The notes: a model not told the origin generated them from the letters alone. 57,302 nucleotides of DNA from an uncultured Candidatus Saccharibacteria bacterium (GCA_964652615.1 CAZZAT010000003.1:1-57302); one strand, 5' to 3'; shown: positions 1,730 through 53,968, counted from the first letter of the stretch. Made by a program: numbers and translations.

Positions 1730-1798
1730 AACTTGTGTATGTGTTGGGGATAACTTGTGTATCTCATACACAAGTGGTTGCTAGGATTTGTGTATGAG
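1730..1798. promoter_or_regulatory. candidate LexA operator array (TTGTGTAT repeats; palindrome ACTTGTGTAT-CTC-ATACACAAGT at 1753-1775)
   Basis: Four copies of TTGTGTAT/ATACACAA immediately upstream of and overlapping the lexA start; LexA autoregulation is established. Confidence 0.55.
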
Positions 1799-2807: not shown

Positions 2808-3065
2808 TTACTTAAGGTGAGCAGAAACGAGCTTGGTCATTTCGAACATTGTGACCTCGCCCTTACCTCCAAAGACTGCCTTAAGCTTGTCATCCGCGAG
2901 GATGTTGCGCTTATTGGAAGGATTCTGGAGGTCGTGCTTCTTAATGTAGACCCAAATCTGCTTAACGACTTCTGAACGGGGCATCGGGCCCTTGCCGACG
3001 ACGGCTTCAAGCTCGGGAGAAAGTTGCATTGGCTTTGTAAGGGCCGGATTGAGTGCTCTAGGCAT
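2808..3065 (-). CDS. SWIB/MDM2 domain protein
   Basis: LSPELEAVVGKGPMPRSEVVKQIWVYIKKHDLQNPSNKRNILADDKLKAVFG is a typical stand-alone SWIB domain. Confidence 0.92.
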   Translation of the reverse strand: MPRALNPALTKPMQLSPELEAVVGKGPMPRSEVVKQIWVYIKKHDLQNPSNKRNILADDKLKAVFGGKGEVTMFEMTKLVSAHLK

Positions 3066-5604: not shown

Positions 5605-7152
5605 ATGGACAGCATCATTAAGCAGATAGAGAAGGAGATAGCCGCCTTTGCACCAACTCAAGGCGCAGAGGAGACGGGCGTTGTGCGCGCTGCCGGAGAC
5701 GGCATCGCAGAAATCGATGGCCTCGGTAATGCGCTCATGAGCGAAATGGTGCTTTTTGATGCAACCTTCGATCGCACTCTTGAAGAAGCTCTGAAAGACA
5801 GCGCCCCTATCTACGGCCTTCTCTTGAACCTTGAAGAGGATGGTGTGCGCGCTGCTATTTTGGGAGATGCGTCCAAAGTATATGAAGGCATGTTGGTTCG
5901 CCGTCTTGGGAAACTCCTTTCTCTTCCTGTGGGAGACTCGCTTATCGGCCGTGTCGTTAATCCGCTTGGTGAAGCGGTAGATGGCAAGGGCCCAACGGGG
6001 GCAACGAAGTTCGTTCCTATCGAGCGTGAAGCCTACGGCGTTATCGACCGTTCTCCCGTAAACGTGCCGCTTCACACGGGCATCAAAGCCATTGATGCCA
6101 TGATTCCAATTGGACGCGGCCAACGCGAGCTTATCATCGGCGACCGCGGTGTTGGTAAGACGACAATCGCTATCGATACCATTTTGAACCAGAAGTCAGA
6201 GCCGAAAGAAACTCGCCCTATCTGTATCTATGTCGCTATCGGCCAAAAGGAGAGTAAGACGGCAAAAATTGTTGCAGAACTGCAGGAGAAAGGAGCGATG
6301 GAGTACACGATTGTCGTTACAGCGCCTGCGTCTGCTCCTGCCGCCTATCAGTTCCTTGCACCGTTTGCCGGAGCAGCTATTGGCGAGCATTTCATGGAAG
6401 CTGGCAAAGATGCGCTCGTTATCTATGACGACCTCTCAAAGCAGGCGGTTGCCTATCGCCAGCTTTCTCTTCTTCTTCGTCGCCCGCCAGGACGCGAAGC
6501 ATATCCTGGCGATATCTTCTATCTCCACTCCCGTCTTCTTGAGCGAGCGGCAAAGCTTTCGAAAGAAAAGGGCGGCGGCTCTTTGACGGCACTTCCTATT
6601 ATTGAAACTCAAGAGGGTGACGTCTCTGCCTACATCCCGACCAACGTCATCTCGATTACGGACGGGCAGATCTTCCTCATCTCGGATCTCTTCAACAAAG
6701 GCATGCGCCCCGCAATTGATGTTGGTATCTCGGTGTCGCGCGTGGGAAGCTCGGCGCAGACAAAAGCGATGAAGAAGGTGTCGGGAAAGATTAAGCTTGA
6801 ACTCGCGCAGTTTCGAGAGCTTGAAGCCTTCATGCAGTTCTCCTCTGATCTTGATGAAGACACGAAGAAGCGTATCGATTCAGGACGCCGCATGACCGAA
6901 GTACTAAAGCAAGGCAACGGCAAGCCGCTCGCCTTTGAAATGGAAGCTGCAATTATCTTTGCAGCGGTAAACGGGTACTTCGATGCGCTTCCACCTGAAG
7001 ATGTTTCAAAAGCAGAACGCTCACTCCAAGACTATCTTTCTCGCGAGGCGGGAGACGCACTTGCTGCTATACGTGAGAAGAAAGAAATCGGAGAAGAAAC
7101 AGAAGCTCTGCTTCGCAAGGTGCTTGATGCGTTTGCTGCCCGTCAGAAGTAG
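5605..7152 (+). CDS. atpA: F1 subunit alpha
   Basis: [40 protein letters not shown]. Confidence 0.99.
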
Positions 7153-51802: not shown

Positions 51803-52996
51803 ATGAATCTTGTTGAAGAGCTACAAGCACGCGGCCTCGTTGAACACGCTTCTGCGCCACTTGAGACCGTTCTCAAGGAAAAACGCTTCGTATACCTTGG
51901 CGTTGATCCAACCGCAGATTCGATGCAGGTTGGAAATCTTGCGCTGGTGCTTTTGTTAAAGCGCCTTTCAGATGCGGGCCATCGTGTGATGCTGCTGGTA
52001 GGCGGAGGCACGGGGATGATAGGGGATCCAAAAGAAAAGGGTGAGCGAGCGCTTGTAGACACCAAAACGGTTGAACGCAATGCGCGTGCCGTTAAGCGCC
52101 AAATGGAGCGCATTATCGGAACGAAAGTACCCGTCGTAAACAATGCGTCATGGCTTTCGAAAGTGCAGCTTCTTCCATTTCTTCGCGACATCGGCAAGCA
52201 CTTTACGGTAAACGAGCTCATAAAGCGGGACATCATACGCCGCAGGCTTGAAACTCCTGATGAAAGTATTTCGTACACCGAGTTCGCGTATGCCTTGCTT
52301 CAGGGCTACGACTTCCTCCATCTCTTTAAGACTAAGGGAGTGAATGCGCAGATAGGCGGGTCGGACCAGTGGACCAACATCCTTTCGGGTGTCGAACTCA
52401 TTCGCCGCAAAGAAGCTAAGGAAGCATACGCGCTGACCTGTCCTTTGGTAACTGATGCTTCTGGAAAGAAGTTTGGGAAGTCCGAAGGAAATGCGGTCTG
52501 GCTCGATGCGTCAAAGACGTCGCCCTATGAGTTTTACCAGTTTTGGATAAACCAACCTGACGCTTCAGCGGGAGAGTACTTGAAGAAATACACCTTCCTC
52601 TCCCTTCAAAAGATTGATGCGCTTCTTGCCGAACATGCAAAAAATCCAAGCGAACGACTTGCACAGAAAACACTTGCTGCTGAAGTAACAGAACTTGTGC
52701 ATGGCCGCCATGAAGCAACTGCAGCGGTAAACGCGAGCAATGCACTCTTCGGGAAGGGAGGAGACGTGTCAAAACTTCCTTCACATACCATTTCTCCTGA
52801 TGCCACGATTTTGTCTGCAGGTGCCCAAAGCTTGGGACTCTCTAAGTCTGAAATGCGCCGCCTTATCGATGCAAAAGGCATAAGGTTGAATGGGCAGACC
52901 ATAGAGACGGATAGGGCCTTTACCGACGCAGACTTTACTGACGGCACTGCCATCTTACAAAAGGGGAAGACCGAGAAGATAGTCATACGACGATAG
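51803..52996 (+). CDS. tyrS: tyrosine--tRNA ligase
   Basis: YLGVDPTADS, LQGYDF, QIGGSDQWTNI, KKFGKSEGNAVWL, C-terminal S4-like domain. Confidence 0.98.
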   Translation: MNLVEELQARGLVEHASAPLETVLKEKRFVYLGVDPTADSMQVGNLALVLLLKRLSDAGHRVMLLVGGGTGMIGDPKEKGERALVDTKTVERNARAVKRQMERIIGTKVPVVNNASWLSKVQLLPFLRDIGKHFTVNELIKRDIIRRRLETPDESISYTEFAYALLQGYDFLHLFKTKGVNAQIGGSDQWTNILSGVELIRRKEAKEAYALTCPLVTDASGKKFGKSEGNAVWLDASKTSPYEFYQFWINQPDASAGEYLKKYTFLSLQKIDALLAEHAKNPSERLAQKTLAAEVTELVHGRHEATAAVNASNALFGKGGDVSKLPSHTISPDATILSAGAQSLGLSKSEMRRLIDAKGIRLNGQTIETDRAFTDADFTDGTAILQKGKTEKIVIRR

Positions 52997-53050
52997 AACT
53001 TGTGTATGAGTAGAGGATAGCGAATCTCGCATACGCGGGATACTTACGGT

Positions 53051-53833
53051 ATGGCTAGACGTTGGACGACGGAGGAAGAAAACAGGTACCGGAAGGAACT
53101 TGTGGAGCTATACGTACAAAAGAACCTAAGCATAGGAGAAATTGGCAAGCGCCTACATCTTACCCAGGGCTCCGTATTCAAACGAATGCAGCGTCTTGGC
53201 ATACCTTCCACACCCTTAAGAAAACAGGGATACCTGAATACCCTTAAAGAAATCTCCTTGCCGAAAAAGAGAACCGAGAAGGTCGCGGAATTCTTCGGAA
53301 TAATGCTCGGAGATGGCCATGTGTCGCATTTCCAGACCTTTGTGACGCTAGGAAATAAGGAACTTCAATATGTTTCGTATGTCGCAAACCTGATGAGGGA
53401 ATTATTTAACACTCCCAGTAAGATCTTTGTCCGAAAAGACGGGTATCGAGACGTATATATCGGTTCTGTCGTTCTTACAAAGTGGCTTAGAGATGAAGGT
53501 CTGGTATCAAATAAAGTTGCATCGCAAGTAGACGCGCCTCTATGGGTGCACCAAAAGCCGGAATACATGCGCGGCTTTCTGCGTGGATTTTTTGATACCG
53601 ATGGCTCTTTATACCGGCTTCGTTTCGGAAAGCAGATTTCATTAACGAACCATTCGTTGCCACTCTTACATTCTTTACGGAAGATGCTCCTTGCATTAGA
53701 ATACAGACCGTCTGAGGTAAGTGCGTTTCGGGTATACCTTACTCGAAAAGGCGACATGGAACGCTTTTTCAGAGAGATATGTCCTGCCAATGCAAAGCAC
53801 CTCAGACGGTTCAGAGACTTGACGCGTCGGTAG
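53051..53833 (+). mobile_element. free-standing LAGLIDADG (DOD-type) homing endonuclease with N-terminal HTH
   Basis: AEFFGIMLGDGH and RGFLRGFFDTDGS motifs; N-terminal LSIGEIGKRLHLTQGSVFKRM HTH; stop codon lies inside tRNA-Tyr. Confidence 0.88.
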
Positions 53834-53906
53834 GTAAGTGGTCAAAACATCGTGGCTGTAAACCACGCGGCGTTAGCCTTCGGAGGTTCGAATCCTCCCC
53901 GGCGCA
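53824..53906 (+). tRNA. tRNA-Tyr (GTA), CCA not encoded
   Basis: Acceptor GCGTCGG/CCGGCGC+A73, anticodon arm CGTGG-CTGTAAA-CCACG, long variable arm, T-arm GGAGG-TTCGAAT-CCTCC. Confidence 0.93.
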
Positions 53907-53968
53907 CACGAAGAAAGACCGAAGCATCTGGCTTCGGTCTTTCTTATTTCTGTGCTATAACCGACGCT

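Follow-up and report, generated by a model that had tools for sequence, protein, structure and literature searches.

LexA is a textbook regulator whose binding motif is ever-changing. The SOS box of E. coli and other Gammaproteobacteria reads CTGT-N8-ACAG (consensus CTGTATATATATACAG / TACTGTATATATATACAGTA), and an SOS network of Patescibacteria was reportedly described by Sanchez-Osuna, Barbe and Erill in 2017 (Environ Microbiol 19:3465). The latter paper is cited among the lineages with direct-repeat LexA recognition (PMC7739468), a mode that evolved several times (PMC8565304; PMC7739468), and by 2021 the number of LexA motifs on record stood at 17 (PMC8565304). In Balneolaeota, the LexA motif TTACACATATTTTWTACATA was validated by EMSA (Kilic et al. 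2020, PMC7739468).

The locus examined here is a group of repeats in front of a lexA gene. The window, i.e. the whole stretch of 57,302 nt that was analysed, corresponds to contig C3 of a 637-kb genome, which is 96.5% complete. The closest public relatives of this genome are labelled Kaiserbacteria, Paceibacterota, Minisyncoccia or Parcubacteria, and the host looks like an ultra-small bacterium of the Patescibacteria, of a Kaiserbacteria/Paceibacterota-like type. The features of the lexA region are the following:

1729-1754, + strand: distal composite site GAAC-TTGTGTAT-GTGT-TGGGGATAAC, with the top PWM score of the genome (36.9 bits)
1753-1775, no strand: perfect palindrome ACTTGTGTAT-CTC-ATACACAAGT with a GTGT-N7-ACAC core, at about -41 to -19 of the putative promoter
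1779-1787, + strand: putative extended -10 element TGcTAGGAT, 6 nt before the lexA ATG
1786-1795, + strand: proximal half-site ATTTGTGTAT, reaching from the end of the -10 element into the start codon
1794-2483, + strand: lexA, 229 aa, PF01726 (LexA wHTH) 4.7e-16 and PF00717 (S24 peptidase) 5.8e-22

The lexA ORF aligns over its full length with E. coli LexA 1JHF (3.5e-18), and the cleavage and catalytic residues are present. Ala93-Gly94 (IASAGCD) falls in the region aligned with E. coli VAAGEP, while the segments with Ser132 (GDS132M) and Lys169 (VIK169RL) align with GMSM and VKRL, respectively. As judged from sequence, the ORF at 1794-2483 encodes a complete LexA with both domains, the cleavage site and the Ser/Lys dyad, and it is the single LexA-like gene of its genome, with no second copy. 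On the 3' side of lexA lies a DUF2283 gene (2497-2736), which is not conserved in the relatives, followed by a gene with a SWIB/MDM2 domain (2808-3065, - strand) that is kept in the closest relatives; an F-type ATP synthase operon begins at about 3626.

Upstream of lexA, ACTTGTGTAT is present at 1731-1740 and 1753-1762, and its reverse complement ATACACAAGT at 1766-1775. With at most one mismatch, ACTTGTGTAT occurs 10 times in the window compared to 2.2 expected, and none of 100 shuffles got to 10. An 11-nt inverted pair (1763-1773 and 1788-1798) overlaps the lexA ATG at 1794. The half-site at 1731, the palindrome at 1753-1775 and the inverted pair 1763/1788 had all been pointed out in the initial annotation and were recovered at exactly these positions. 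The palindrome with 10-bp arms is not, however, the conserved unit, which is a heptamer half-site in direct repeat. In the distal composite, the two heptamers start 11 bp apart, and the proximal half-site is located 33 bp from the copy at 1753 and 55 bp from that at 1731, both distances being multiples of 11. A simple sigma-70 scan of the lexA promoter returned no -35/-10 pair; the lexA promoters of relatives carry TGCTAGCAT or TGnTAnnnT at the place equivalent to the putative extended -10. Since the latter sits only 6 nt before the ATG, the lexA mRNA is probably leaderless.

This lexA was found in 16 of the 61 sampled genomes of the genus. From 27 distinct lexA promoters recovered, the heptamer TGTG(T/G)A(T/C) was counted in the ~120 nt upstream of the gene (123 nt). 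It is present in every one of them, with a mean of 2.7 copies versus 0.06 expected, and conservation upstream of lexA orthologues, on which the initial annotation had staked its proposal, is thereby observed in 27 of 27 distinct genomes. The genes flanking lexA vary from genome to genome: only the SWIB gene is common, and this only among the closest genomes. Since the neighbours are not conserved, lexA is the sole gene always attached to the motif, and a transcription factor co-inherited beside lexA could be ruled out as the binder.

The motif copies in front of lexA form direct repeats or a GTGT-N7/8-ACAC palindrome, and within the genus GTGT-N8-ACAC dyads are part of several further lexA promoters. 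One clade carries AAAGTTGTGTAT-N-TTGTGTAC-ATAG-TTGTGGATAAC, and another TTGTGTAT-N-TTGTGTGG, after which come a GTGT-N8-ACAC dyad and a third TTGTGTAT. In the nearest relative, G068, whose LexA is 79% identical, the layout of the lexA sites is the same as in the window, except that the distal copy and the two arms of the palindrome read GGTGTGTAT and that the spacer has 4 nt versus 3 nt here. Both arms of its palindrome are altered together, giving AGGTGTGTAT-CTCT-ATACACACCT, and the flank CTT is replaced by GGT in the distal copy as well as in both arms. The GG is also found at the uvrA and endonuclease sites of G068, unlike at its alkB site, which retains the TT flank.

Presence of the motif follows presence of the gene. 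The pattern TGTGTAT-N5-GNGGA was detected in 12 of 16 genomes with lexA versus 0 of 15 without it (Fisher p = 1.6e-5), a link that leans heavily on one promoter, because the only clear site of most relatives is that of lexA: nearly all of their matches fall at the lexA promoter. For AANTTGTGTAT, the frequency in 45 genomes lacking lexA is that of the controls. Strict patterns revealed almost no wider regulon beyond lexA in the relatives, the rest of the matches lying mostly in coding sequence and at chance expectation; the sole intergenic composite match other than lexA, found in G071, precedes a 96-aa ORF. We propose, on comparative sequence grounds, that the LexA lineage with this motif is a diverged one, confined to a Kaiserbacteria-like genus.

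In the genome of the window, the motif takes the form of a 26-nt composite, rAAs-TTGTGTAT-N4-TGKGGATAA (rAAsTTGTGTAT-N4-TGKGGATAA), with its heptamers 11 bp apart. With at most one mismatch, TGTGKAT-N4-TGTGKAT occurs 7 times in the genome, whereas Markov simulations give 0.25 and the reversed pattern is found once. A PWM was then derived from 11 training sites and scanned over the whole genome, yielding about 15 sites at 17-37 bits against a background of 15 bits or less. All of these sites are intergenic save one, which is reversed and falls within the ORF that precedes recA, and the 13 sites with a recognisable downstream gene point, without exception, at that gene. Similarity between the sites stops at the 26-nt motif. 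Outside the endonuclease-like genes described below, the candidate targets are:

C1:6860: uvrA site, found with the PWM and appearing twice through a scaffold gap
C1:19172: weaker site, PIF1-type helicase
C1:70240: site upstream of the gene of a 125-aa repeat protein
ORF start at C1:133927: alkB-like 2OG-Fe(II) oxygenase gene with a site upstream
C1:139999: C5 DNA methylase gene with a site upstream, convergent with a LlaMI-type restriction enzyme gene

The uvrA site is to be counted once, because the flanks of the N-run look like a scaffolding duplication: around C1 ~6918-7100, 100 N are bordered on both sides by the same ~50 nt, which include this site. Two further high-scoring composites lack an obvious downstream gene. 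The one at C2:103345-103370 (- strand) lies beyond a hairpin 3' of a greA-like gene and is antisense to it; the other, at C1:370428-370453 (+ strand), is placed within the ORF upstream of recA and faces away from recA. Neither a recA site nor a translesion polymerase with a site was found in the candidate regulon of this genome.

The most extended group of targets consists of homing-endonuclease-like genes, one of which is carried by the window:

52996-53021, + strand: intergenic composite site GAAC-TTGTGTAT-GAGT-AGAGGATAGC (= GAACTTGTGTAT-GAGT-AGAGGATAGC), PWM 30.4 bits
53039-53044, + strand: putative -10 element GATACT, as read from the sequence, 6 nt away from the ATG (53051), as for a leaderless mRNA
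53051-53833, + strand: free-standing two-motif LAGLIDADG_3 gene with an N-terminal HTH (PF14528 6.7e-17, two stretches)
C3:53051, C1:38121 and C1:340368: the three LAGLIDADG_3 genes with a site
C1:82671, 92380, 279371 and 282300: the four HTH plus LYxGEG-type genes with a site
C3:53824-53907, C1:38112-38197, 83350-83427 and 91582-91658: adjoining tRNAs Tyr, Leu-CAA, Val and Phe
C1:341040-341124, 278630-278701 and 281535-281608: adjoining tRNAs Leu-GAG, Gly-TCC and Gly-GCC

The site at 52996-53021 lies between tyrS (end 52996) and the endonuclease ORF, whose 3' end overlaps tRNA-Tyr (53824-53907; aragorn). A simple scan of the endonuclease promoter gave no sigma-70 consensus. The sequence AGAACTTGTGTATG at 1728-1741 has an exact second copy at 52995-53008, which ends 42 nt before the endonuclease ATG (53051). 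This recurrence, already noticed in the initial annotation, is real; the copy had been taken there for a bare half-site, whereas it belongs to a full 26-nt composite of the same form as the distal lexA site at 1729-1754. The link with endonucleases even turned out to be stronger than had been thought, as the composite precedes 7 of the 7 free-standing homing-endonuclease-like genes of this genome, and in G068 a site is likewise found at one endonuclease gene of the HTH type. The count is complete, because tblastn and Pfam show no other free-standing member of either family. LAGLIDADG_3 domains were also seen at C4:13266-13514 and C2:16703-16939, inside ORFs of 890 and 1,520 aa, presumably as inteins, and the PWM found no composite site at these two intein-like loci.

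All seven endonuclease-like genes abut or overlap a tRNA gene of the same strand, and the promoter of one site reads directly into tRNA-Leu(CAA). The paralogues are only ~28% identical and their flanks are unrelated, which rules out recent duplication of the copies; the shared 26-nt site is thus not a leftover of such an event. An N-terminal HTH was detected in 5 of the 7 proteins, once above the Pfam cut-off, twice just below it and twice as a weak sub-threshold match.

Among DNA-repair genes, uvrA carries the composite in this genome (AAACTTGTGTAG-TCGC-TGGGGAAAG), in G068 (AAGGTGTGTGG-TAGC-AGGGGATAG) and in G071 (AAACGTGTGTAG-TTGC-TGTTAGTAA), which are the three most closely related genomes. 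In three further genomes with lexA, TTGTGTAC is placed at uvrA between the -10 element and a conserved leader hairpin. The heptamer was found at uvrA in 0 of 15 genomes without lexA, where this stretch is usually CCGTAC. The alkB-like site is present in this genome and in G068, and the same elements occur at another spacing in G079; in G083, which has the sole alkB-like orthologue from a genome without lexA, no site was found. At the PIF1-type helicase, the site of this genome is weaker. Among the genomes compared, the motif is kept at DNA-repair genes other than recA (uvrA and the alkB-like gene), and only where lexA exists. The initial annotation had suggested inspecting both lexA and recA upstream regions, and for recA the outcome is negative: no conserved site was found upstream of the gene in 29 genomes, which excludes recA as a target, although two GTGTAT hexamers 22 bp apart and the reversed site ~215 nt upstream are present here.

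Both repair genes have conserved leaders of their own. In most of the 29 genomes, recA (L091-L119; C1 ~370215-370330) has a conserved TATACT -10 element and a ~100-nt leader containing ACCGACCGNTTCGG and no LexA-type site. The uvrA leader forms a stem-loop, GTACCTGCCCCGCCACGGGCAGG, just 3' of a -10 element of the TGGTATAAT type (C1 ~6865-6905; L061-L090); it is seen in most of 30 genomes, with or without lexA, and its stem shows compensatory changes (CCTGTCCC...GGACAGG).

As to promoter geometry, a TAnnnT hexamer, in many cases after TGn, is located 6-8 nt in front of the ATG of most targets. Many promoters of this genome likewise carry TAnnnT 6-8 nt before the ATG without a Shine-Dalgarno sequence, and this arrangement suggests that leaderless mRNAs are widespread in this genome. 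From the end of the site to TAnnnT, the distances in the 11 training sites are 11, 12, 19, 20, 20, 21, 21, 29, 30, 30 and 30 bp, and the alkB-like and PIF1 sites are each 11 bp away from it; these spacings have the appearance of helical phasing. TTGTGT as a -35 element or TGTGTAT as an extended -10 element could be discarded, since the spacings do not fit and sigma-70 scans are empty. At lexA, uvrA, alkB, PIF1 and the 125-aa gene, the sites overlap the -35/spacer region or the start point of the predicted promoters, whereas several endonuclease promoters and one lexA clade have them upstream of -40. In one large lexA clade and at three endonuclease promoters of this genome, the sites span ~-80 to -40, i.e. 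upstream of the place expected for a -35 element.

The conservation of the motif at all lexA promoters, the restriction of the composite pattern to genomes with lexA and the occurrence of uvrA and alkB sites only together with lexA support the lineage-specific SOS box that the initial annotation had put forward. It is probable, in our opinion, that the diverged LexA encoded just downstream has the TTGTGTAT repeats as its operator. The half-site, approximately (A)A-s-T-TGTG(T/G)AT, would be bound by LexA dimers in one of two arrangements, direct with an 11-bp period or inverted (GTGT-N7/8-ACAC); the 11-bp tandem and the dyads fit a tandem or two-fold symmetry of the LexA dimer. At lexA itself, four half-sites would cover ~-60 to +2 of the probably leaderless extended -10 promoter, leading to autorepression, and RecA-stimulated self-cleavage at Ala93-Gly94, catalysed by Ser132 and Lys169, would release the protein. 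Elsewhere, composite sites 11, ~20 or ~30 bp upstream of the -10 element would place the uvrA, alkB-like, PIF1-type, methylase, 125-aa and 7 endonuclease-like genes under the same control, so that these genes would be induced by DNA damage.

Part of the evidence does not speak for LexA. Endonuclease promoters in genomes without lexA also have single TGTG(G/T)AT or TTWTNCACA boxes, at a frequency well above chance, and one can ask whether the repeats are rather DnaA boxes, or sites of another universal factor, in which a weak (TGTGTATnn) array beside a strong TGTGGATAA would let replication status control lexA and the endonucleases. DnaA arrays with 9-mers 2 bp apart, hence with an 11-bp period, are a known layout. 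Moreover, TGTGGATAA, which on the opposite strand reads exactly as the canonical DnaA box, is the invariant third repeat in one lexA clade; the second half TGKGGATAA of the composite is near a DnaA box, and sequences of the TGTGGATAA type also occur at the lexA promoters of other families, which use TTCTA-N6-TTCTA. Canonical TTATCCACA boxes flank the dnaA gene of this genome, and TTWTNCACA is found in 5 of 10 HTH-type endonuclease promoters from genomes without lexA versus ~0.007 expected per promoter. However, only the second half fits when the composite is scored against the DnaA 9-mer TTWTNCACA, in which TT and CACA are invariant: the required AA is missing from the first half, TGTGTAT(G/C)N, whose conservation runs in the 5' direction (rAAs-TTGTGTAT) while the two 3' AA positions that DnaA needs vary. 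In addition, the dnaA locus has no TTGTGTAT, the 9-mers would overlap in the palindrome, and the composite is absent from 15 of 15 genomes without lexA; DnaA is presumably universal, yet the uvrA and alkB sites exist only where lexA does. DnaA, or another universal factor, as the reader of these repeats therefore seems rather unlikely to us, while a dual composite site of the LexA/DnaA type is possible. These relaxed DnaA boxes are located, in either orientation, ~40-90 nt upstream of endonuclease-like genes (HTH-type promoters of genomes without lexA at L193, L198, L200, L201 and L213; also L143, L148, L152 and L156).

A different doubt concerns not the binder but its action. All 11 training sites face the downstream gene, the site-to--10 distances cluster at 11-12, 19-21 and 29-30 bp, which would keep the sites on one helix face, no -35 element is recognisable, and in many relatives the sites are wholly upstream of -40. 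LexA could accordingly bind there but activate or fine-tune, or the motif could be a directional promoter element that co-travels with lexA. A position at ~-80 to -40 would be more natural for an activator than for a repressor acting by simple occlusion, and tRNA-Leu(CAA) as a direct target would be odd for tight repression. Nevertheless, the sites at lexA, uvrA, alkB, PIF1 and the 125-aa gene overlap the putative -35/spacer/start region, as is classic for repressors, LexA proteins as a rule repress, and with only ~15 sites in the genome the motif is not a general feature of promoters; we hold this second reading to be improbable. That the endonuclease-like proteins bind the motif through their own HTH, in an autoregulatory manner, or that the motif is part of a copied mobile cassette, might be suggested by the HTH in 5 of these 7 proteins and by the mobile, tRNA-linked character of their genes. 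But G071, G027 and G079 have the lexA motif without a detectable homologue of either endonuclease family, the G071 site being also at uvrA and the G079 elements at uvrA and alkB; likeness that ends at 26 nt between proteins of ~28% identity, and sites at repair genes and the methylase, make this explanation very unlikely. The palindrome, finally, could form a 10-bp stem, and its arms covary between this genome and G068, as expected for an RNA hairpin that terminates or attenuates transcription of the 52-aa ORF lying upstream, or that belongs to a 5' leader. This is scarcely credible: a U-tract and a terminator call are both lacking and the fold z-score is only -1.85, on which grounds the terminator/RNA hairpin was rejected; the hairpin would sit upstream of the predicted transcription start, and most copies, here and in the relatives, are direct repeats unable to pair.

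Control by the diverged LexA thus remains our preferred reading, and it would add a further, well-supported variant of the LexA motif within Patescibacteria, an earlier description of this exact variant being possible. The regulon would be unusual, as it comprises every free-standing homing-endonuclease-type gene, each abutting a tRNA gene, and is devoid of recA. DNA damage may then switch on tRNA-linked homing-endonuclease-type genes. A literature search returned no description of LexA control of free-standing homing endonuclease genes located beside tRNAs. More tentatively, and with clear reservations, one could imagine that the diverged LexA captured all seven tRNA-flanking endonuclease cassettes, of two unrelated-looking families, together with the restriction-modification methylase and uvrA/alkB, so that homing, i.e. 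double-strand cutting at tRNA loci, would be licensed by the damage response; with one LexA half and one DnaA-box-like half, the composite might read replication status and damage together. If true, selfish nucleases would be wired into the host stress circuit in minimal genomes, and this would offer a testable handle on the timing of homing.

Comparison with described LexA boxes modifies one statement of the initial annotation, which had considered the motif unlike the E. coli and Bacillus boxes: it resembles the Balneolaeota direct repeat and, in G068, the E. coli SOS box. The Balneolaeota motif, bound by a canonical LexA, has the same 11-bp direct-repeat period, and its reverse strand reads TATGTAWAA-AA-TATGTGTAA, with a core TGTGTA/TGTAWA that matches TGTG(T/G)AT here; the likeness is at the level of the motif. 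The two systems belong to different phyla, and AAsT- flanks and a second half -GGATAA are found here. Their regulons differ as well, with recA and translesion polymerases in Balneolaeota versus uvrA, alkB and selfish genes, without recA, in this genome. The dyad of G068, GTGTATCTCTATACAC, has the same 16-bp geometry as the textbook E. coli SOS consensus and is identical to it at 12 of 16 positions. The outer base is nevertheless G instead of C, the dyad of the window's genome has N7 and is 1 bp shorter, and across the genus it is the direct repeats that are conserved and not the dyad. At the positions aligned with the recognition helix, the residues are SLRSVTQRIEAL here and SPNAAEEHLKAL in E. 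coli.

The GTTC-N7-GTTC motif of Alphaproteobacteria also shares the 11-bp period, but the half-site here is TTGTGTAT and not GTTC or TTCTA. In other families of the order, LexA homologues are found with TTCTA-N5/6-TTCTA over the -10 element of lexA, and a GGGGATAAC or TGTGGATAAC element is located ~28 nt upstream. The left half of the Gram-positive (Cheo) box GAAC-N4-GTTC is superficially matched by AGAAC-TTGT-GTAT. However, GAAC is not kept in the relatives (AAAG, CAAC, GAC and others) and GAAC-N4-GTTC boxes are at chance frequency in this genome, so that a degenerate Gram-positive box could be ruled out. A second LexA-like paralogue of ~190 aa (FYRKHKRMPSITE...LGHIRAGF), with a perfect GAAC-N4-GTTC over its own -10 element, was observed at loci L025, L026, L028, L030, L031, L033 and L034 (G003, G022, G004, G018, G021, G035); some genomes have it alongside the TTGTGTAT-type lexA, and the genome of the window lacks it. 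Such a GAAC-N4-GTTC-boxed paralogue in the same genus fits the duplication-and-divergence scenario proposed for the turnover of LexA motifs.

The DnaA box TTATCCACA is nearly the reverse complement of TGKGGATAA, and TGTGTATAA equals the R2 box of E. coli oriC; the first half of the composite departs from DnaA-box conservation and the composite as a whole tracks lexA. As to the endonucleases, free-standing homing endonuclease genes beside tRNA genes are known, for example SegB of phage T4, and here too the genes are flush against tRNAs. In contrast to T4 SegB, those described here are chromosomal and of LAGLIDADG type, in a CPR bacterium, each lying behind a candidate LexA operator.
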